NCBI GenBank assembly: GCA_020852715.1
Contig: JADZAE010000077.1
Span: forward strand, 39,622-103,621
DNA from: Deltaproteobacteria bacterium
GTDB taxonomy: Bacteria > Bdellovibrionota_C > UBA2361 > SZUA-149 > JADZAE01
Direction: 5' to 3'
DNA: 64,000 nt
Positions 1,313 through 62,570 of this stretch are shown piece after piece. Position numbers and translations under genes: made by a program. Below the pieces are notes generated by a model. It saw only the letters and a program-made list of their open reading frames with translations. It was not told where the DNA came from and made no database searches. The first letter of the stretch is position 1. Each line of letters starts with the position of its first letter.

Positions 1313-1688
1313 GAAGGCCGGGGCATAGACGGAGTCTTATGCACGAATCCATCGGTTGCGTTACTTCAGAGTACCCGCGCTAGCACCAATGACGCCCATA
1401 ATATTGCGGCGCCTATGGAACTCGACCCATCTTTGGAAACGAAGCGGACAAAGTGGGTCGCCACCGATGCGCATTCACGCGGTGCTTGTCGGCTTCGCCA
1501 CACACCGCCGCCGATATAAACCCATCGCTGATGAATTTTGAACAAATCAAGGTTGATAGAAACTACTTGTCTCACTATTCTTATTACTGACATTACCGGG
1601 AATGCAAGAATCATCTTGCCTTGCCCTCCTGAAAACGGAAACGGATATCTATACCGAAGCTGTTAGCCGAACCGCATGCAGAAAATGT

Positions 1689-4600
1689 ATGTTCGAAAAA
1701 GTAAAACCCTGGGTTGATTTTATTGAGCTGGAGCACAAAGTGCTTCAATTCTGGGATAAAGAGCAAATCTTCCAGCAACTAATTTCAAAAAACCAAAACG
1801 GCCCACGCTGGTCTTTTCTCGATGGCCCAATCACGGCCAACAATTCAATGGGAGTGCATCACGCTTGGGGGCGCACCTTAAAAGACACTTTTCAGCGCTA
1901 CCATGCCATGGAAGGCCAATGCCTTCGCTACCAAAACGGCTTTGACTGCCAAGGACTGTGGGTGGAAGTGGAGGTAGAAAAGCAGTTAGAGTTTAAGTGC
2001 AAAAAAGACATTGAAGCATTTGGCATAGAGAAGTTTGTGAATCTTTGTAAAGAGCGAGTTCACAAATATAGCAAACAAATCACCGCGCTGTCTCGGCGGC
2101 TTGGTTACTGGATAGACTGGGATAATAGTTATTTCACCATGTCCGATGAAAATAACTATACGATCTGGAGCTTCTTAAAAAAGTGCCATGAGCGCGGCTT
2201 GATTTATCACGACTATGACGTTATGCCCTGGTGCCCACGCTGCGGTACCGGTCTATCACAACACGAAATGGGCGAAGGCTATAAAGAAATTGCTCATACC
2301 TCAGTGATCGTCAGATTCCCGCTCACCGAGTGTGGAAACGAATATCTGCTTGTCTGGACAACAACTCCGTGGACTTTATCTTCTAACGTTGCCGTTGCCG
2401 TAAATCCGGATACAATTTATCTTAAAGCCCGACAAGGCGGCGACATTTTAATACTCGCCAAGGCGCTAGCCGATAAAGTGCTAAAAGCTAAAGGTGCCTA
2501 CGAAATCCTATCTGAGCTTCCCGGTAGCGAACTACTTAATTTGAAATACGCTGGTCCCTACGACGAATTACCGGCACAGGTTAAGAACAAACTACGGCAT
2601 AAAGTAATTGCCTGGAAAGAAGTAAGCGACGCTGATGGCACAGGCTTAGTGCATATCGCTCCGGGCTGCGGCAAGAAAGACTTCGCGCTAGGAAAGAAAA
2701 ATGGTCTGCTCGCGCTTTGCTCGATCAGCGAGGAAGGCATTTACGGCGAGGGCTTCGGCTTTCTCACCGGCAAACACGCAAGTTCAGTCGCCGAAGAAGT
2801 GGTAGCGAATCTTAAGAAAAAACAAATTCTCTACTCACAAGAAAAGTTCAAACACAGCTATCCTCATTGTTGGCGCTGCGGCACTGAGCTCTTATTCCGC
2901 TTAGTTAAGGAATGGTTTATTTCCATGGATAGCTGACGCTCTGAAATCATGGAAGTAACTAAGCAAATCACCTGGATTCCAAGTTACGGCAAAGAGCTGG
3001 AGCTAGATTGGCTTAAAAACATGCATGATTGGATGATCTCCAAAAAACGCTATTGGGGATTGGCGCTACCGATCTGGATTTGTCAGGACAAAAACTGTGC
3101 TCACTTTGAAGTTATCGGCAGCAAAGAAGAGTTTAAGGAAAAGGCAATCAGCGGCTGGCAAGACTTTGATGGTCATTCACCGCATCGACCATGGATAGAT
3201 AATGTCCTCATAAAATGTCCAAAATGTGGTGGCCAGGCCAAACGTATTCCCGATGTCGGCAACCCGTGGCTTGATGCCGGTATAGTTCCTTATTCAACAA
3301 TCAAATACAACTCCGACCAAGAGTATTTTAAGCAATGGTTTCCGGCTGACTTAGTGCTTGAATGCTTTCCCTGACAATTTAAGAATTGGTTTTATAGTCT
3401 GCTCGCGATGAGTACGATGATGGAGAATAAGCCACCTTTTAAAACTTTGCTTGGACATGCCTTAGCCAGAGATGAAAAGGGTGCCGAGATGCATAAAAGC
3501 GCCGGCAATGCCATCTGGTTTGACGATGCCACAGAGAAGATGGGCGTCGACGTTATGCGCTGGTTGTATTGCGGCCAGGACGCCACAATCAATCTCAACT
3601 TGGCTTTAATATCACCAAAGAAATTAGGGGAGGGGTAGTTAATACCTATTGGAATACTTACTCGTTCTTTTGTAACGTTGCCGCCGCTGCCAATTTTATT
3701 CCTCAGCGCTCAGCAAGCGAGCCCAAGGACAGGCCGGAAATAGACAGATAGATTATCGCCAAGCTCAATGCCTACTATAAGGTTGCCGCACGTTGTTATG
3801 AGCAGTGCGACACCCACGCTGTTGACAAAGGCGCTGAAGATTTTCTGGAAAATCTTAGTAACTGGTATATTCGGCTCTGCCGCCGACGTTTTTGGGGAGA
3901 GTTATCGGTAAATTCCGACGCGCTTAGCGCTTTTCAAACACTTTATGAGTGCCTGGAGGGATTAACGCGCATTGTAGCTCCGATGCTTCCGTTTATAACT
4001 GAGAATATTTATCAAAATCTTGTTCTCGGTCATGATAAAAATGCGCCGGCCAGTATTCATCTAAGCGACTTTCCAATAGCTAAAGAGGAATTGATTAACA
4101 CCAAGTTAATCGACGAGATGGACGCTATCAGAAAACTTACCACACTGGCTTTATCAGCGCGGGAAAATGCCAAAATAAAGATCAGACAACCTTTAGCTGA
4201 GATTGTTGTCGAGACCGGGGATGTTTTAGTAAAAAAAGCAGCCGATAAATTTAAAGATTTATCACTGGAAACGCTGAACATCAAACTGATGCAGATAAAA
4301 GAGGTCGGGGCTCTCGGCTACCAATTCAAAGTCCAACCCAATTACAAAACCTTAGGACCTAAGCTTGGAGCAGGGTTAAATAAAGTAATTGCGGCGATTG
4401 CCGCTCAGCCCCCCGCAGCGCTTAAAGAACAAATAGATAAACATAAAAGTGCGGCCCTGACTGTAGAAGGACAGTCTGTTACTATAAGTGCTGAAGATAT
4501 CACCTTTAGTATATTACCCATTGCTTCATACAGCATGGCTTCTGACGCCAAATCTGTTGTCGCGGTGAACACCACAATAGATGAAGTGCTGGCTCAGGAA

Positions 4601-4861
4601 GGGTTAATGCTTGATCTGTTGCGCAAGCTCCAAGAGCTGCGCAAAGAAACTGGCCTCGATATCTCTGATCGGATAAATCTTAGCTACAGCACAGAGTCTC
4701 AAGCACTAAAGGCGATGTTTAGCGTTTGGGGGCCATACATCAAAGACGAACTGCTTTGCGAAAAGCTTGAAGTTAGTAGTGACTTAGCTAAAGAACTTGA
4801 GGTGCTTGGAGAACGATTGGCCGTGCAGATCACGAAAATCAATAATCCGCAACACCCATAA
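1689..4861 (+). pseudogene. ileS: Isoleucyl-tRNA synthetase, type 2 (eukaryote/Thermus-like), pseudogene. Three in-frame stops (TGA 2934-2936, TGA 3372-3374, TAG 3749-3751) and a frameshift near 3585-3605. Catalytic motifs are degenerate.
   Basis: N-terminus MFEKVKPW...GPITANNSMGVHHAWGRTLKD, with the HIGH motif replaced by [38 protein letters not shown] region reads EMHKSAGN. The TAG replaces the W of the conserved DRWI motif (EIDR*IIAKLN). WNTYSFF appears in a shifted frame. The C-terminal domain is in ORF 3983..4861. Confidence 0.85.
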
Positions 4862-5046: not shown

Positions 5047-5432
5047 CTGAGGGCACGCACAGCGTCTGAGTCTTATACATAAGTTGTGAAAGTGGGCTTT
5101 TAAAAGGCTCTAGCGTTAGCTTCACAAATTTTCAAATTACAATGAGGCTTTGTGGAACGCGGACCCAGTCGCTCCGCAACATGGGTCGCGTTCCACAGTA
5201 GCTACGACTTTTGTCGCGTCATGCTATTTTGTAACAACATTAGAACCTGACATTCTTGGTGGGCAGCTTGTGTATAAGACTCAGCACAGCGTGCCGCTAC
5301 GTCATCTCATTAAATAATATTATTATGAGGGGAATTAAATTCATATGTTGCAGCGTTCATATTGTTTGCCGTGACAACATACGTTGTAGCGGCACGCTGC
5401 GCGTGCCCTCAGAAAACAAAATCACAATTATG
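5047..5432. repeat. Palindromic element (arms CTGAGGGCACGC(A/G)CAGCGTGCCGCTAC at 5047-5065 + 5285-5300, and 5406-5432) whose left arm is split by the MITE insertion.
   Basis: If the MITE and one TSD copy are removed, the left arm becomes a near-perfect inverse of the right arm. A related motif GGGCACGCTGCGCGTGGCCC occurs at 52769-52790. Confidence 0.5.
5066..5284. mobile_element. Non-autonomous miniature element (~219 bp, MITE) with IS50/Tn5-like 19-bp terminal inverted repeats and an 8-bp target-site duplication CACAGCGT.
   Basis: Left end ctgagtcttatacataagt; right end (reverse complement) ctgagtcttatacacaagc. Tn5 outside end is CTGACTCTTATACACAAGT. Flanking direct repeat cacagcgt at 5058-5065 and 5285-5292. 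No ORF inside. Confidence 0.6.
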
Positions 5433-5642
5433 CAAACCCGCATGCGCCGATTCCCCTACGCCCACCACCTTCTCCCCATCATGGTGGCTCATCAACTATG
5501 TAATACAGGTAAAATACTACAAAATTATCCTCCCTAACCCCCCCAATGTTTATTCATAACAATTCTTTGACAATCCGCTATACATTTAATAGAAACTAGC
5601 TCAGTTCTTTTTCATATAGGTAAATACGATTCTAACTCTCAT

Positions 5643-5707: not shown

Positions 5708-6130
5708 ATGGAAGCCATTGACCGGCACTTAGCACTTTCCTGGGAGAGTTTCTTTCGGGTATTTACACAGGTGAAGGGAAACTGCACACAGGTCACCTCT
5801 GATCAATTTGTAGAATTGCTGCAATCTTTTCAAAGCGTAGTAACCACATTTGAACATGGGCCCACGCAGACCCAGATAGCAAATATGCTCAGCGCACTGG
5901 GGGCAAAAATAGCAAAGCTGGCCGTACAACTTGTACACAACGAACCCCATTCATTACTTTGTTGTCGCGCAGGCATGGATTTATTTATTTGTGCCCAACA
6001 CTGCCAGCTGCAAGCTGCTCGCATTTATGGCGACCAAGGCCATCATAAGGAGCAAGACGAGGCATATTTTGCTTTGCTTGGAAGTATTGGCAGCGCGCAG
6101 GTAGCAGCTTTGAAATTGGCCCGAACTTGA
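5708..6130 (+). CDS. Hypothetical 140-aa protein, family A, paralog 2.
   Basis: ORF with AAAGGAG RBS. Weak similarity to the 400..822 product. The terminator follows. Confidence 0.55.
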   Translation: MEAIDRHLALSWESFFRVFTQVKGNCTQVTSDQFVELLQSFQSVVTTFEHGPTQTQIANMLSALGAKIAKLAVQLVHNEPHSLLCCRAGMDLFICAQHCQLQAARIYGDQGHHKEQDEAYFALLGSIGSAQVAALKLART

Positions 6131-31604: not shown

Positions 31605-32441
31605 TTGCATAAACAGATGCCTAGAGTAAGAAAAATATATCCCAAAGATAGTATTGTCTTTGTGACGACAAGTACCAAAGACAATCTACCTTTTATCCCC
31701 AATATTCTTATTAATGCTATACTAGCAAGCATTATTGCACGTGCTCAATTTTTGTACGGTCAGCAAATTATTGGTTTTTGCTTTATGGCTAATCACCTCC
31801 ATATGATGATCAAGATCAATATACCAGATACCGCAAGCCGCTTTATTGGCTATATCAAATTTGAATCAGCAAAAGCTGTTAACCAACTACTCGGTAGAGA
31901 ATCGCACAATGTCTGGTGTTCAGGTTTCGATTCTCCTAAAGTTGTTACATACGATACAGTTATCGAAAAACTTAATTACATATACTTGAACCCCGTAAAG
32001 GCGCGCTTAGTAAATTCCATTGAAGAATATCCTGGACTGAGTTCCTGGGAGGCATTTTCACAGGGGCAAATCTGCAAAGAAGTAACTTGGATAAAAGTAT
32101 CAAGTATCACAAAATTAAGAACCACTAAAATGTCGATTGTCGAACAAAAAATGGAATTAAATAAGTTAATGAGCTGCAATGACAAAAAGTATAATTTTAA
32201 AATTTCTCCTAATGCTTGGCTGGAATGTTATCCCGAGATAAAACATCAAAAGCCTCACAATGTAATTAAGAAAATGATTAACCAAATTAAAAAAGCTGAA
32301 GAAGAATATAAAAAAGATAAGCCAAAAATATTTGGAGTTCTCAGGCTACAAACTCAAGAAATAAACGCCGAATATAAGAGCAAAAACAAGGAAGAAGAAC
32401 CTCATTTATTAGCTCTAATATCGCTCTCCGCGTGCATTTAA
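31605..32441 (+). mobile_element. Y1 HUH tyrosine transposase (IS200/IS605 TnpA-like / REP-associated RayT-like), 278 aa with a Lys/Glu-rich C-terminal extension.
   Basis: HUH motif ANHLHMMIKI and catalytic Tyr motif YIYLNPVKARLV. Flanked at a distance by REP-like clusters C and D. Confidence 0.7.
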
Positions 32442-32782
32442 TTAAGCGGCACAAGAACAATACTAACATTGCAAAGGAGGCATGGAAGTCAATAAAATTT
32501 GGAGTAAAAGCCGATCTTCTACCGGGCTACTACGCTCCCGGAGGGATTCTGCATAGCAACATTATTAATTTTAATGTCTCTACCCCACTAGATTTAATTT
32601 AAAACGAAAACATCATAAAGTATCAACTGCTACTAAACTATGCCTTTTAAAAGTTCGCAAGGACAGCCATTTAGCGGTCCAAATAAGGCGAATTTTAAAC
32701 TATTTCGTCAACCGCTCTAATCTTCTAGTCTTATTCTATACAACAAATTCACCATACTGCCTCTGATTCTTCACCCCTTTCC

Positions 32783-32845
32783 CCAGTGCCCCAGCAGACT
32801 GATAGATTTTCTCGCTGGTTTTCTCGCTGGTGCCCTGCACCAGCG
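32783..32845. repeat. REP-like palindromic repeat cluster D (ccagtgccccagcagactg 32783-32801; gctggtgccctgcaccagcg 32826-32845), plus short tandem repeats (ttttctcgctgg x2; gctctaggggt x2). Directly downstream of gcvP.
   Basis: Read directly. It probably also acts as the 3' hairpin of the gcv operon. Confidence 0.55.
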
Positions 32846-32865
32846 AAGCTCTAGGGGTCGAGGCT

Positions 32866-35715
32866 CTAGGGGTTGGTGACCTGCACCAACGTGCAGCAAA
32901 AGTGGCGGTCGCTGGAGACGGGGTCGATGCGGGAAACGGGGGGGAAGTAAGTTTTGTGTTTTAGGTATGGAAGCGGATAGGCTGCTTGTTCACGGCTGTA
33001 TGGGAACGGAAATTCGTTGACAATAAGGAGGTGCGCCGGGTGCGGAGCATTTTTTAGCGGACTATCGGCCGCCTTCACTCGACCACTTTCGATATCTGCA
33101 ATTTCCCCACGAATCGCTATCATCGCTGCTACGAAGCGATCAAGCTCTTCCCTGCTTTCACTCTCCGTAGGTTCAACCATCAGTGTCTCCACTACAGGGA
33201 ATGACACCGTAGGTGCATGAAATCCATAGTCCATCAGCCTTTTTGCTACATCAGTAACGTCAACACTAACGGTTTTTTTGAAATTTCGTAAATCTAATAT
33301 ACACTCATGGGCCACTAACCCCTTTTCCCCCTTGTAAAGAACAGGAAAATATTTTTCTAAACACGCCGCTACGTAGTTCGCATTCAATATAGCTACTGCC
33401 GTAGCCTGACTCAGACCCTCTCTTCCCATCATGCGAATATAAATCCACGGGATTGTCATTATGCTTGCCGAACCCCATGGGGCAGCCGACACGGTTCCCA
33501 TCGATTTCTCTCCCCCCACCTTCACCAACGGGTGACACGGCAAATATTTTGCTAAAATTTTCTTTGCTGCTATCGGCCCTACTCCCGGGCCTCCTCCACC
33601 ATGTGGAATAGCAAATGTCTTATGTAAATTAAGATGACAAACATCCGCGCCAAAATCCCCCGGACGACAATACCCAACTTGGGCATTCATATTTGCCCCA
33701 TCTAAATACACTAAACCCCCCGCATCATGTACCATTCGGCAAACTTTTTTTATTTCTCTCTCAAACACTCCATGTGTCGACGGATAAGTGATCATTATCG
33801 CCGCCACTTCCTCTTTGTATTGCCGCAACTTTTCCCCTAAATCACTAACATCTATATTACCGTCAATATCGCATTTTACATGCACAGTTTCTAATCCAGC
33901 CAAGCTTGCACTTGCCGGATTCGTTCCATGAGCCGACGCAGGAATCAAACATAGCGTTCTTTCTCGCTCTCCTCTATCTATAAAATAACTACGAATAAGC
34001 ATCAGCCCGGCATACTCCCCTTGCGACCCGGCATTTGGCTGTAGCGACACACAGTCCATCCCCGTAATTTCGGCTAAATAATTTTCTAATTGGCTAAATA
34101 ACTCCCCGTAACCCCTTGCCTGCTTCTCTGGCACAAATGGGTGAAGCGCAGCAAATTGCGGCCAGGATAAGGCAAGCATGGAAGCACTAGAATTTAACTT
34201 CATTGTGCACGAACCTAAGGCAATCATTGAATTAGCCAGCGAAATATCCTTATCTTGGAGCTGTCTCAAATATCTAAACACCTTTGTTTCGGAGTGGTAA
34301 CTATTAAACACTTCATTTGTTAAATAAGAACTCTGCCGCTTAAATTGCACCGGCATCTCAATCGGAGTCGCCAGACCGTCCAGCACATCCTTAACTTGAA
34401 TTTTATCGTCACCAAAGCATTGAATAATTGCAACTATATCTTCAGCTGTCATTGTTTCATCAGCAGATATATAAATAGCTGCCGAGCTATAACGAAAATT
34501 AATTTTCTTGCTCTCTGCCTGTGCTTTTATTTTCGCTAGCTGTTCTCCGCTCGCAGTAATCTGTAGAGTATCAAAAACAAACGAGTTGTTTTCTTTAAAA
34601 CCCAATCCGACTAACCGTTCTTTAATAAACTGTGCGATATTATATAATCGCTCTGCTATTTTCTTTATCCCCTCCGGGCCATGATAAACAGCATACATCG
34701 CTGCCAAAATGGCCAACAAAACTTGTGCTGTGCAAATATTGCTCGTCGCCCGTTCACGACGTATATGTTGCTCTCGCGTTTGTAGCGCCAAACGAAATGC
34801 TCTCGCCCCTTGCGCATCTTGCGCCAATCCCACCATACGGCCCGGCATCTCGCGCGCCAATTCTCCGCGCACAGCCATAAATCCCGCATGCGGACCACCA
34901 AATCCCATGGGCACACCAAAACGCTGCGCGCTTCCCACAGCCATATCTGCGCCCCACTCAGCCGGCGCCTTCAACATGCTAAGCGCCAGTATGTCGCAAG
35001 CACATGTGACCAGTATATTTTTCGCAGCAGCCTTTTTGCATAGCTCGGCATAGTCATTTACCTTCCCATCGCCGTCAGGATAAGAAACAAGAAGACCAAA
35101 CACCTCCTCATCAAAATAGGTATCTGTTAAGCTTGTTTCAATAACTTCAATTCCTAACCCGAAAGCCCTTGTTTTAACTACTGCTACTGTCTGGGGAAAA
35201 TGCTGTCCAACCAGCAAAAACCGTTTTCTATTTCCCGTGGCCACCCGATAGCATAAGGCCATCGCCTCTGCCGCTGCCGTTGCTTCATCCAACAAAGAAG
35301 CATTACTAATCGGAAAACCTGTCAGATCAGAAATCATCGTTTGAAAAACAAACAACGCTTCCAATCGTCCTTGCGAAATCTCCGCCTGGTAAGGCGTATA
35401 ATGCGTATACCAAGCAGGGTTTTCCAAAATATTTCGTTGTATTACTGCCGGCAGTATAGTTCCATAATAGCCTTGCCCAATGTAACTTCTCCAAAGTTCA
35501 TTTTTATCAGCTAATTTTCTTAATTCAGTCAAGGCTTCCTGTTCGCTAAGTCTTGCCGGCAATGATATTTCTTTGGTTAGGCGAATTTCCGCGGGAACAG
35601 TCCTATCGATCAACTCCTCTAAGCTAGCTAGGCCGAGAGTTTTCAACATCTGATCAATTTCTTTTTTATCGGGTCCCAAGTGCCGAGAAGAAAAGTCCGG
35701 TAAAAAATTACCCAT
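32866..35715 (-). CDS. gcvP: Glycine dehydrogenase (decarboxylating), single-chain P-protein of the glycine cleavage system.
   Basis: 949 aa. N-terminus FSSRHLGPDKKEIDQML. PLP-dependent core. Intact. Confidence 0.95.
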   Translation of the reverse strand: MGNFLPDFSSRHLGPDKKEIDQMLKTLGLASLEELIDRTVPAEIRLTKEISLPARLSEQEALTELRKLADKNELWRSYIGQGYYGTILPAVIQRNILENPAWYTHYTPYQAEISQGRLEALFVFQTMISDLTGFPISNASLLDEATAAAEAMALCYRVATGNRKRFLLVGQHFPQTVAVVKTRAFGLGIEVIETSLTDTYFDEEVFGLLVSYPDGDGKVNDYAELCKKAAAKNILVTCACDILALSMLKAPAEWGADMAVGSAQRFGVPMGFGGPHAGFMAVRGELAREMPGRMVGLAQDAQGARAFRLALQTREQHIRRERATSNICTAQVLLAILAAMYAVYHGPEGIKKIAERLYNIAQFIKERLVGLGFKENNSFVFDTLQITASGEQLAKIKAQAESKKINFRYSSAAIYISADETMTAEDIVAIIQCFGDDKIQVKDVLDGLATPIEMPVQFKRQSSYLTNEVFNSYHSETKVFRYLRQLQDKDISLANSMIALGSCTMKLNSSASMLALSWPQFAALHPFVPEKQARGYGELFSQLENYLAEITGMDCVSLQPNAGSQGEYAGLMLIRSYFIDRGERERTLCLIPASAHGTNPASASLAGLETVHVKCDIDGNIDVSDLGEKLRQYKEEVAAIMITYPSTHGVFEREIKKVCRMVHDAGGLVYLDGANMNAQVGYCRPGDFGADVCHLNLHKTFAIPHGGGGPGVGPIAAKKILAKYLPCHPLVKVGGEKSMGTVSAAPWGSASIMTIPWIYIRMMGREGLSQATAVAILNANYVAACLEKYFPVLYKGEKGLVAHECILDLRNFKKTVSVDVTDVAKRLMDYGFHAPTVSFPVVETLMVEPTESESREELDRFVAAMIAIRGEIADIESGRVKAADSPLKNAPHPAHLLIVNEFPFPYSREQAAYPLPYLKHKTYFPPVSRIDPVSSDRHFCCTLVQVTNP

Positions 35716-52703: not shown

Positions 52704-52931
52704 CAACCTCCTCCGCGCTACCGCGCCCAGTGGTGAAAATTCCAAACGCATAATGCGTCGCGGTATGGGGTAGGGGCACGCTGCGCGTGGCCCTAAAATA
52801 TATGCGGACGTTACAATTTCAAGGTATGCCCCTACATCGCAATATCCTTAAAGAAGGAAACACACCGGCCTATCAATTTGTCAACAACCTCCTCGGCGCT
52901 GCCGCCACGGTGGTGAAAATTTCACAAACGC
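52704..52931. repeat. Two copies (~47 bp, ~180 bp apart) of a direct repeat CAACCTCCTC(C/G)GCGCT(A/G)CCGC...GTGGTGAAAAT(T)(T/C)CA(C/A)AAACGC, within a GC-rich non-coding stretch.
   Basis: 52704-52750 versus 52885-52931. The palindromic GGGCACGCTGCGCGTGGCCC between them is related to the element at 5406-5432. Confidence 0.45.
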
Positions 52932-53166
52932 TTGTGGAGCGCGGACACATGTTGTGAGCGCCAGCGAACAACTGGGTCGCCGGCGCTACACATGCTCGCG
53001 GCATTTGGCGGCTTCACCGCTCACCATCGCCGGCACTCCCAACGTCGGCAAGTCAGATCTTCCGGCCTTCAGCCTTCAGATCATGCCCCGCGCTCCAAAG
53101 CACCCGCGACATTTTCTTACGTCGATGGCGCTGACGCGTGCTGACCCAAAGTAACGCATTTAAAGG

Positions 53167-53185
53167 ACTTGTGTATAAGACTCAG
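53167..53185. mobile_element. Solo IS50/Tn5-like terminal inverted repeat (19 bp; 18/19 identity to the Tn5 outside end).
   Basis: Reverse complement ctgagtcttatacacaagt versus Tn5 OE CTGACTCTTATACACAAGT. The inside faces left, toward the 52600-53160 repeat region. No transposase ORF is present. Confidence 0.55.
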
Positions 53186-53212: not shown

Positions 53213-54806
53213 CTAATACTTAAACTGTTGCAGTAATTCCTGCAAAGCCGCAGCTCTTTGCGCTAGGTCTGTAGCAACTTGCTGGGTAAGAGTTGCTACG
53301 CTGGCCGCTTGCTGCGAGGTCACAGATACTTCTTTGATACCTGTAGCAATCTCGCTACTGCTGATCGCTACTTCGGCAGCGTTACCGGAAATCTCTCGAG
53401 TGGTGACACTTTGCTCCTCGACAGCACTGGCAATCGTCGTTGAGACATCATTGATCTGCTCAACAATGGCAGTTACTTCGTTTAACGAGTCAATAGCCTC
53501 ATTGGTCCCAGCCTGTATGTCCCGCACACGTCTAGTAATTTCCTCAGTTGAATGCGATGTCTGTTTAGCCAATTCTTTTACTTCGTTAGCAACAACAGCA
53601 AAGCCTTTCCCCGCCTCTCCAGCACGGGCGGCCTCAATGGTAGCATTTAAAGCTAACAAGTTGGTCTGCTCAGCAATGGCGCTAATAAGGTTCACGACAT
53701 TCCCAATTTCCTTGCTACTAGCATCCAGCCTAGCAATCTTATCATTAGTTAATTTTACTGCGTGTAAAGATCTTTGTGCAATTTCTCGCGCACCAGCAGT
53801 ATTATTAGAGATCTCCCTAACCGCCTCTGCCATCTGCTCAGAAGCAGAAGCTACAGTATTAATGTTGGTATTTACTTGCCCGGCAGCAGAAGCAATTATT
53901 TGGGTTTGTGAGAAAGCGTTAAGAGCACTGCTATATACATACTTTGCCCTTCTGATTTCAATTGAGTCGCAGCATCTGCCAAGGCCACAACATTTTGCCC
54001 AATCTGTGATACGGCAGACTGAATCCGAGCAACAAAAGCATTAAACCAATCAGCAACTTGTCTTAATTCATTTTTACTCTGCACATTTAGTCGCCTAGTT
54101 AAATCTCCTTCTCCCTGGGCAATATCACGCAAAGCGGTAATAACAGTAGCCAGCGGTCGGGTAATGCTGTTACTTAAAAATATACCAAGTATAAAAACAA
54201 TACATATGCCCACTAGAATTAATCCCCAGCTTAATTTCCGCATGAGGTTAGCATCTACTTCCGCAGCTTCCACCCGTTCTCGAGCCTTGGTATTATGAAA
54301 CTGGACAATTTGTTCAAAAGCAGCAAAAAGTTTATTGGAAGCGTTTTTAAACTCATTACTTAATTGGGCATTAAAGTGCGTAGTGCTGTCGATATCTTTT
54401 TTACGGGAGATAATCATCTCCTCACCAGTTTTATCCCAGGCAGCAAATGCTTCTTTCACTTCATTATATAAAGCTTCCTCTCCTTCCAAAAAAGGTGTGG
54501 CCAAAAATTCATCACGGTAACGGTTATAATCTGCACGTAAGGACAAATATTTATCGTGAATTTTTCAACCAACTCCTCAGTATTTGACTCTAAGCTGGCG
54601 CGAATAACAAAAGCTCGCATATCCTTAGCCTGCCCATCCATTTTACTAAGCTCAACAGTGGCCGGAAAATTTTTTCACGCCATCTTGTGAAAGTTATCCT
54701 ACAGCTGGTTTAGCGCGTAAGAACTGGCAAACCCTAAGATGATCAATAAGATCGTGGACACTACCGGGCCCAGCAAAACACGCGATCGAAACGAAGTCAG
54801 CGCCAT
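53213..54806 (-). pseudogene. Methyl-accepting chemotaxis protein (4HB sensor, TM, HAMP, MCP signalling domain). Disrupted by two in-frame stops near the N-terminus and at least two frameshifts.
   Basis: C-terminal ...[27 protein letters not shown]... (53213..53833). HAMP/sensor portion in ORF 53896..54546. N-terminus MALTSFRSRVLLG...NQL*DNFHKMA*KNF... Confidence 0.8.
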
Positions 54807-61912: not shown

Positions 61913-62073
61913 AGTTATGTTTCCCCCAGACTATTTATATGAGTCCTTTATCAATCGCTTCTTTTTCCCTAAGTAAAGTAGTATCCGTTCACGACTTTTA
62001 GTGAGTTTCTATATAAAAGCCCCCTGAGGGGGCAAGTTTTGCGAAGCAAAACTGTTGGGGGGCAGACACTAAG

Positions 62074-62570
62074 CCTTCACAAGATTAGTCGTCTCCGATG
62101 AGGAAACGTCAATAAATTTAAAAATATTCACGTTTCTAATACCCCTGAAATTTTAATGAAAATTATCCCGTGAAGACTTATGTAAAGTAAGCCCGGCAAT
62201 AATTTTGCTATTGGTATCAGAAAGTTACAGGCGCGCTAACAAAAATCTACGATCTGTTTGCCAGCCATACAACCCTATCAGTTCCAACCAAGCCTTCTAG
62301 CACAGAGTCGGCAATTTGATACAACCAACCCGCTGCGGCTATTTATATCGCCACACGAAGTAAGTTGAAACAAAGACTTTGAACAGTATATTACTAAGTA
62401 ATTAAGTTTTGCGTGCGGTATAAAGAAAAGCAAGGATGCCTTTCGCGGAAGCGAAACCCCGATTCGCTTCCGTAAACGCCCATAAATAAGCCACGGATGG
62501 CCTATTTATGGGCAAAATGAAACTAAACCTTCACATATTTAATCGTTTCCGATGAGGAAACGTCAGATTA
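62074..62570. repeat. Two copies of a ~42-bp direct repeat (CCTTCACA(A/T)...TCGT(C/T)TCCGATGAGGAAACGTCA) about 455 bp apart, in a 0.95-kb ORF-free region rich in perfect hairpins.
   Basis: 62074-62115 and 62528-62570. Nearby hairpins: gcccataaata / tatttatgggc (11-bp stem), ttttgc-gaa-gcaaaa, gcccccTGAgggggc. Confidence 0.45.

Follow-up and report, generated by a model that had tools for sequence, protein, structure and literature searches.

Downstream of a decayed ileS gene, in the 64-kb window studied here (the whole stretch of DNA that was analysed), a short sequence with ends resembling those of Tn5 interrupts one arm of a GC-rich palindrome. Is this the trace of a transposition event, and, if it is, what kind of element moved, into what kind of target and from which source? 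The first-pass annotation had read the locus as an IS50/Tn5-like miniature element (MITE) with an 8-bp target-site duplication, nested in another palindromic element. The ends, the exact duplication and the restored palindrome arm described below bear this reading out, whereas the accompanying account of a third, distant end has to be revised.

A 219-bp element and its footprint

We searched the window with the end pattern CTGAGTCTTATACACAAGT, allowing up to three mismatches, and recovered exactly three matches, at 5066–5084 (plus strand), 5266–5284 (minus strand) and 53167–53185 (minus strand); shuffling predicts 0.01 matches, and a total of three was not attained in any of 100 shuffles. The first two matches delimit an element that we term B, with the following parts:

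5066–5284, no strand: element B, a 219-bp MITE with IS50-type ends and no coding capacity (end-pattern search, inverted repeat and duplication)
5066–5086, plus strand: left terminal inverted repeat of B, CTGAGTCTTATACATAAGTTG (end search and inverted-repeat alignment)
5264–5284, minus strand: right terminal inverted repeat of B, CTGAGTCTTATACACAAGCTG as read on the minus strand (end search and inverted-repeat alignment)
5058–5065, no strand: left copy of the target-site duplication, CACAGCGT (read from the sequence)
5285–5292, no strand: right copy of the target-site duplication, CACAGCGT (read from the sequence)
5151–5197, no strand: internal hairpin module of B, TGTGGAACGCGGACCCA...TGGGTCGCGTTCCACA, common to elements A and C (self-comparison; see below)

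The terminal inverted repeat of B extends to 21 nt, of which 19 are complementary, and the 8-bp duplication CACAGCGT is exact on both sides, an 8/8 agreement with a chance probability of about 1.5e-5. Should the last G of the right end be assigned to the duplication instead, the repeat grows to 9 bp (GCACAGCGT), which makes the choice between 8 and 9 bp formally ambiguous; 8 bp is the preferred reading because both ends of B then stay complete. In-silico removal of B together with one copy of CACAGCGT leaves 139 bp with 27-nt arms that match each other at all but one position (26/27), and the left arm is thereby restored, just as had been proposed; the intact right arm, previously placed at 5406–5432, actually lies at 5386–5412. 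With so few end matches expected by chance, an exact duplication and an excision that restores the arm, B is a genuine transposition footprint and not a chance match, as the first-pass annotation had held.

B has the small size, the terminal inverted repeats, the duplication and the reconstructable empty site of a MITE, and it is non-coding. In the earlier description, 219 bp without an ORF were said to lie between the repeats; the lack of coding sequence stands, but 219 bp is the length of the whole element with its repeats included. No ORF of at least 80 aa is contained in B, which is too short for one, and a transposase gene cannot fit. A 93-aa ORF (5256–5537) starts in the right end of B and runs out of the element, and a Pfam search with it gave no match. 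As single-stranded DNA, B folds at −47.1 kcal/mol (z = −7.15); strong single-strand folding of this kind is expected of any MITE. An Rfam scan of the elements detected no family at the gathering threshold and only chance-level matches at E < 1, and scans of the intergenic region for promoters and terminators likewise stayed at chance level.

Ends of the IS50-subgroup type

We compared the window ends with the Tn5 outside end CTGACTCTTATACACAAGT, which was confirmed on IS50R from plasmid NC_008460 and in PMC2566895. The left and right ends of B each differ from it at two positions and the third intact end, the right end of element C, at one (18/19), in keeping with the one to three differences that had been noted before. 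The same ends show 8–9 mismatches to the Tn5 inside end and 4–5 to the Nextera mosaic end, and all three have a G at position 5 (G5) that is absent from IS50R. For the IS50 subgroup, De Palmenaer et al. (PMC2266710, Table 1) give ends of the form CW------Y---CA-A--W-, a length of 1350–1550 bp and direct repeats of 8–9 bp; its members encode a DDE transposase with the YREK motif. The left end of B and the right end of C agree with this consensus at 7/7 conserved positions and the right end of B at 6/7, and the duplication of 8 bp (9 with the terminal G) lies within the subgroup's 8–9 bp. B has neither a YREK DDE transposase nor a size of 1350–1550 bp, and since the window holds no transposase gene or fragment, we regard B as a derivative and not as a member IS.

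The transposase searches combined tblastn with seven queries, namely the Tn5 transposase (100% identical to the annotated IS50R protein) and six further IS50-group transposases, with a profile HMM of these seven proteins run against the six-frame translation of the window. Neither of them, nor a very permissive tblastn, found a transposase or a trace of one anywhere in the 64-kb window, including in elements A, B and C. Compared by blastn with plasmids, plasmid-borne IS50 included, neither C nor B plus its flanks gave a meaningful match.

Full-length IS50-group relatives, whose transposases are 29–40% identical to the Tn5 transposase, provide further points of comparison:

Vibrio owensii IS50-group element: end CTGTCTCTTATACACAAAT, exact 9-bp flanking duplication
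ISPrst1-like element of V. rumoiensis: end CTGTCTCTTATACACAAAT, exact 9-bp flanking duplication
Ralstonia IS50-group element: end CACCTCGTTATACACAAGT (core ...TTATACACAAGT; ...CGTTATACACAAGT), exact 9-bp flanking duplication

As the core TTATACACAAGT occurs in such distant, transposase-bearing relatives, it is a conserved feature of the whole subgroup and not a signature of Tn5.

We also scanned GTDB representative genomes, JGI metagenomes and viral contigs with CTGAGTCTTATACAYAAG. These collections exclude the source metagenome-assembled genome (MAG), and the window's own ends are not among the GTDB-representative matches. The scan returned six singletons in genome contigs, 15 loci in metagenomes and none in viral contigs, and in these collections there was no full-length IS with exact ends. 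Most of the metagenome matches and two of the six genome matches fall in one Pyrinomonadaceae region whose conservation extends to either side of the match, and these are therefore not IS ends. Among the other matches, a metagenome locus with two inverted matches (L011) is a palindromic chimeric contig, and L012 has its match within a 308-aa ORF. Real IS50-like ends are displayed only by a Psychromonas MAG (L006), in which a 121-bp pair at 4170–4290, including an exact 19/19 match to the right end of C, is accompanied by a further end on the edge of the contig (6085); neither a duplication nor a transposase lies within reach there. The G5 type of end thus exists outside the host lineage.

Two older siblings

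The match at 53167–53185 had been described as a solo end standing next to GC-rich direct repeats and as a possible remnant of a full IS. Self-comparison of the window revised this picture, in that the supposedly solitary end has an inverted partner at 52623–52671 (74% over 50 nt against 53136–53185) and is one terminus of a second element, C. A third element, A, has an end at 1330 followed by sequence similar to the subterminal region of C (E = 1e-3) and to the C interior (E = 2.5e-8) in searches of the 64 kb. Their features are as follows:

52623–53185, no strand: element C, a 563-bp non-coding sibling; right core end intact, left core decayed to CTGAGTCTAACCACAAAAC (self-comparison)
52623–52671, plus strand: left terminal/subterminal inverted repeat of C (self-comparison)
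53136–53185, minus strand: right terminal/subterminal inverted repeat of C, including the end at 53167–53185 (end search and self-comparison)
52697–52744, plus strand: GC-rich direct repeat 1 inside C (self-comparison)
52878–52924, plus strand: GC-rich direct repeat 2 inside C, 81% identical to repeat 1 (self-comparison)
52932–52951, plus strand: left arm of the C hairpin module, TTGTGGAGCGCGGACACATG, homologous to 5150–5167 of B (self-comparison)
53082–53100, minus strand: right arm of the C hairpin module, CATGCCCCGCGCTCCAAAG on the plus strand (read from the sequence and alignment)
1330–1513, plus strand: element A, a one-ended decayed relic beginning CGGAGTCTTATGCACGAAT... (subterminal and hairpin-module similarity to C)

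The direct repeats reported earlier are thus present, but at 52697–52744 and 52878–52924 and not at 52704–52931. The right core end of C is the closest to the Tn5 outside end among the five window ends. With no transposase trace in C, either by tblastn with the seven queries or by the HMM, it is a non-coding sibling of B and not the stump of a full IS. C is not flanked by a target duplication (CGCCCAATA versus GACCGGCAG); A likewise lacks one, and a search for its right end detected none. A profile built from the five ends (one of A, two of B and two of C) recovers those five in the window, and a search of the window with it for further degenerate ends found none beyond them.

Beyond the 19-mer, A, B and C have in common their subterminal stretches and, in the interior, the inverted-repeat module GTGGARCGCGGAC.CA ... 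TGGGTCGCG.TCCAC, the arms of which are 3 nt apart in B (5151–5197) and about 130 nt apart in C. The extra length of C is largely accounted for by a 181-bp stretch bounded by the 48-bp direct repeats, and if one direct repeat and the stretch between the repeats are taken out, about 382 bp remain that are collinear with B. The window therefore holds three related copies with five ends, and since B has intact ends and a duplication, C one bad end and A a single end, they form a small family caught at three degrees of decay. Of its members, at least three in number, B is the youngest, with C and A being older and decaying in place, which shows that the MITE family has been resident in the host lineage for some time.

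The interrupted palindrome

With B taken out, the outer palindrome resolves into two inverted units separated by an AT-rich spacer, and a third such unit lies inside C:

5047–5065, minus strand: left REP-like unit, the 5′ part as read on the plus strand, split by B (excision reconstruction)
5293–5300, minus strand: remainder of the left REP-like unit, GCCGCTAC, ending in a CTAC (= GTAG) tag (excision reconstruction)
5301–5385, no strand: 85-bp AT-rich spacer (GC 0.32) between the inverted REP-like units (composition)
5386–5412, plus strand: intact right REP-like unit, GTAG-C-GGCACGC-TGC-GCGTGCC-CTCAG (hairpin search)
52770–52794, plus strand: third GTAG REP-like unit, GTAGGGGCACGCTGCGCGTGGCCCT, inside C (hairpin search and self-comparison)

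All three units follow the layout GTAG-C-GGCACGC-TGC-GCGTGCC-CTCAG, in which the GTAG tag stays unpaired and a GC stem of 7 bp encloses a loop of 3 nt, and the two at the B locus are inverted with their tags inside (TT type) across the 85-bp spacer. The GTAG-tagged REPs described by Di Nocera et al. (PMC3733652) are units of 20–40 bp, tagged at one end by an unpaired GTAG, with stems of 5–13 bp and loops of 2–20 nt, which are found mostly downstream of coding regions and form inverted 'TT' dimers with spacers of 20–100 bp. Both the units and the dimer of the window lie within these ranges. All three GTAG units are extragenic; they are the only ones seen in the 64 kb, each beside or inside an IS50-like element, and elsewhere in the window hairpins rich in GC are scarce. 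Judged by its form, the outer palindrome is probably a tail-to-tail dimer of GTAG-tagged REPs. The duplicated CACAGCGT spans the last base of the 5′ half-stem, the loop and four bases at the start of the 3′ half-stem, and B accordingly split the hairpin. REPs are known insertion hot spots for ISs, including the IS4-family ISRm22, and Tn5 has a preference for palindromic targets (PMC1525189).

Alternatively, the 139-bp sequence with its 27-nt repeats could be a second, unrelated MITE or foldback element, or B and the arms could together make up one composite element. The near-perfect arms, the CTGAG with which both types of repeat start, the presence of only three units in a window otherwise poor in GC-rich hairpins and a RAYT-like gene without flanking units would all suit such readings. 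However, the 139-bp unit has no flanking duplication (...CACTCAAC / AAAACAAA...), every arm is itself a tagged, REP-like stem-loop and C contains a lone unit that has the GTAG tag as well. The separate arrival of B is evident from the duplication that it has of its own. We hence consider this alternative unlikely and retain the REP dimer as the preferred reading of the palindrome. The RAYT-like ORF in question (31617–32441), whose presence in the window favors the REP reading, lies in an AT-rich stretch; it scores 31.9 bits with Pfam Y1_Tnp (cut-off 23) and 67.1 bits with NCBIfam REP_Tyr_transpos, below the cut-off of 80, and displays an HLH (HUH-type) motif and a YIYLNP motif. Its flanks hold no GTAG units and no clear inverted repeats, and a PDB sequence search with it gave no match.

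Both window loci with a REP unit also hold an IS50-like element, B lying within one unit and C containing one. The 181-bp stretch of C harbors its REP unit together with a truncated inverted partner, GTAGGGGCA (minus strand, 52827–52835), and may reflect an internal duplication, the insertion of a REP into C or the carriage of a REP by the element. When the flanks of B were compared with the C interior for wider homology, only the REP unit of about 25 nt was common to both, the rest falling within shuffle scores. A functional link between the IS50-type MITEs and the GTAG REP-like units, as opposed to a chance neighborhood, seems rather improbable to us. If it were true, the Tn5-type transposase of this lineage may have evolved REP-hairpin targeting or, alternatively, C-type elements may carry and spread REPs by DDE transposition, which would amount to a RAYT-independent dispersal.

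Origin of the element

We posit that B is, in all likelihood, a miniature non-coding derivative of an IS of the IS50 subgroup of the IS4 family that inserted in a REP-like dimer, while its older siblings, A and C, are decaying. Weighing against this account are the negative transposase searches of the window, the failure of the collection scans to return a full-length IS with exactly these ends, the missing duplications of C and A and the 9-bp duplications of the full-length relatives with readable flanks. From what is known of Tn5 and IS50, a Tn5-type DDE transposase encoded outside the window would have bound the two 19-bp ends and formed a synaptic complex, and the element would then have been excised by cut-and-paste via hairpin intermediates. 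By the habits of the family, integration would have proceeded through an 8-bp (possibly 9-bp) staggered cut. The target itself is evident from the sequence: it was the stem-loop of one unit in a pre-existing pair of inverted GC-rich palindromic units, situated downstream of the decayed ileS gene.

A resemblance to Tn5 in a metagenomic assembly calls for a check against laboratory Tn5, be it the Nextera mosaic end or a mutagenesis cassette, and against chimeric assembly. The intact ends of B and C match the Tn5 outside end at 17–18 of 19 positions, the sequence comes from a MAG and one of the metagenome matches (L011) did prove to be chimeric. Yet the interior resembles neither IS50/Tn5 nor any plasmid, B has an exact target duplication and the contig holds two further copies, older and diverged, at distances of 4 kb and 48 kb, and the number of mismatches to the mosaic end (4–5) and the inside end (8–9), together with a G5 in all intact ends that IS50R lacks, effectively refutes such an artefact. 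Conservation of the 19-bp Tn5-like end reaches well past the enterobacteria, and a match to it in a MAG should not by default be taken for a library artefact. A natural origin leaves room for the idea that the likeness to IS50 is due to convergence or distant ancestry and that the mover was a transposase from outside the IS50 subgroup. The cognate transposase was not found in the window, and the duplication of B is 8 bp as against 9 bp in the full-length relatives with readable flanks. Nevertheless, duplications of 8–9 bp are inside the subgroup range, the 17–18/19 identity far exceeds the minimal subgroup consensus and the core TTATACACAAGT is found in relatives with transposases as distant as 29–40% identity to that of Tn5, all of which makes an outside mover decidedly improbable.

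The position of A and B on either side of ileS raises yet another scenario, namely that the two are left over from a composite transposon, flanked by MITEs, through which the type-2 ileS (1602–4861) was imported. The A end at 1330 (plus strand) and the right end of B at 5284 (minus strand) do read inward and bracket the gene, which codes for a DUF5915-type IleRS and is now a pseudogene. However, there is no common duplication outside 1330 and 5284 (GGCATAGA versus CACAGCGT), the segment has a GC content like that of its surroundings and A has decayed far beyond B, which, having its own duplication and a restorable target, arrived alone. We view the composite transposon as highly improbable and continue with B as an independent insertion of an IS50-subgroup derivative.

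Genomic context

The ileS gene at 1602–4861 belongs to the DUF5915-type, type-2 IleRS and is broken by four lesions; the best homologue of the fragment is 56% identical. Exact look-ups of window proteins, aimed at empty sites in sister genomes, returned nothing. Stop-codon recoding was considered for the broken gene and ruled out, as TGA ends 6 of the 25 long ORFs. The ThrRS of the source MAG (MCC6933746.1) has its next relative at 71% identity among 5.8 billion proteins. A chemoreceptor gene is split. Taken together, the nested insertion, the ileS pseudogene and the split chemoreceptor gene suggest ongoing mobile-element activity and gene decay. IS50-subgroup elements are known mostly from Proteobacteria, and the locus offers a clean, datable non-autonomous element of the Tn5/IS50 type from a poorly sampled lineage. 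It is a known kind of mobile DNA, and B leaves the known working of such elements unchanged.

Comparison with known systems

B resembles IS50/Tn5 in its ends, which, like the end of C, begin with 5′-CT, match the outside end at 17–18 of 19 positions and keep the core TTATACACA. It differs from IS50 in lacking a transposase gene, in its length (219 bp versus about 1.5 kb) and in an interior unrelated to IS50. Moreover, both of its ends are of the outside-end type, whereas IS50 has an outside/inside pair, and its duplication is 8 bp, where that of Tn5 is 9 bp. Related end cores are found in IS50-group elements on plasmids of Vibrio and Ralstonia, the ISPrst1-like one among them; unlike B, these elements are full-length (~1.47–1.51 kb), encode transposases with Tnp_DNA_bind and DDE_Tnp_1 domains and generate 9-bp duplications, and their ends differ from those of the window at three or more positions.

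With regard to its target, B parallels the insertion of IS1397, IS621 and ISRm22 into REPs, in that it likewise sits inside a tagged REP-like hairpin, although, as a single insertion, it cannot establish target specificity. The dimer itself is comparable to GTAG-REP dimers and REPINs in its location downstream of a coding region; it departs from them in that the window has three units only and in that the RAYT-like gene is sub-threshold and not flanked by units.

Lastly, B joins the IS-derived bacterial MITEs, of which the IS231-derived MIC231 cassettes (IS4 family) are an example, in being short and non-coding and in having the terminal repeats of an IS family, a target duplication and strong foldback potential. 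The window family as a whole resembles them in its several diverged copies. It is set apart by the wide variation in length of its members (219 bp, 563 bp and a relic of at least 184 bp) and by the conserved internal hairpin module that the copies have in common.

A broken gene and a possibly broken one adjoining the IS50-type elements

Between A, a one-ended decayed relic (1330-1513), and B, the 219-bp MITE of the same family with IS50-type ends (5066-5284), lies a gene that is no longer intact, with the relic on its upstream side and the MITE on its downstream side:

1602-4861, ileS, type-2 (DUF5915-type) isoleucyl-tRNA synthetase, pseudogene with four lesions

The lesions comprise two in-frame TGA codons (2934-2936 and 3372-3374), a shift of the reading frame around 3600-3610 and a TAG around 3749-3751 in the context 'EIDR*II', where the IleRS motif would presumably call for Trp. 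Recoding of the stop codons was considered as an alternative and is ruled out, as TGA serves as the normal stop of 6 of the 25 long ORFs in the window; accordingly, the broken ileS is a case of gene decay.

A methyl-accepting chemotaxis protein gene (53213-54546, minus strand), directly downstream of which lies C, the 563-bp non-coding sibling of B (52623-53185), is seemingly broken into two ORFs and may be another pseudogene:

53896-54546, minus strand, chemotaxis protein ORF with HAMP
53213-53833, minus strand, chemotaxis protein ORF with MCP signalling domain

Within C, two GC-rich 48-bp direct repeats (52697-52744 and 52878-52924; 81% identical, 181 bp apart) enclose its REP-like unit, with internal duplication and insertion as the candidate origins of the repeats. 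Another pair of direct repeats in the window, of 47 nt (62065-62111 and 62519-62565; 85% identical, 454 bp apart), is unrelated to the IS50-type MITE.

A RAYT-like transposase gene

Where the window is richest in A+T (GC 0.376), it harbors the following gene:

31617-32441, plus strand, RAYT-like tyrosine (HUH) transposase (MCC6933721.1)

Its product scores 31.9 bits against Y1_Tnp and 67.1 bits against the NCBIfam model REP_Tyr_transpos, below the cut-off of 80, and displays the HLH and YIYLNP motifs. The flanks of the gene contain none of the GTAG units, the putative REP stem-loops found around B and inside C. Between the gene and gcvP there is a cluster of short tandem-like repeats (32780-32900; TTTTCTCGCTGGT and GGCTCTAGGGG, twice each), within which lies a stem-loop with a 10-bp GC stem (32824-32846).

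Matches to the IS50-like end in other genomes

Soil Pyrinomonadaceae (Acidobacteriota) contigs (L002, L005, L007, L009, L010, L013, L014 and L016-L021) share a conserved stretch of about 100 nt that includes CTGAGTCTTATACATAAGT. We reject this region as an IS end because conservation extends to either side of the match; its flanks are coding in appearance, and the region itself resembles a promoter or leader that has been conserved. The metagenome contig L011, whose ORFs near the match are sugar-transferase-like as judged by eye only, only mimics a 1.6-kb IS through the two 'ends' of a long inverted duplication (1380-3120), and is a chimeric assembly of the hairpin type.

A Psychromonas MAG (L006) features a pair of IS50-like ends spanning 121 bp (4170-4290), CTGACTCTTATACGCATCT and, on the opposite strand, CTGAGTCTTATACACAAGT, together with an additional end, CCGACTCTTATACACAAGT, at 6085 on the contig edge. 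These ends have no flanking duplication; CTGAGTCTTATACACAAGT is identical to the right end of C (53167-53185, minus strand) at 19 of 19 positions.
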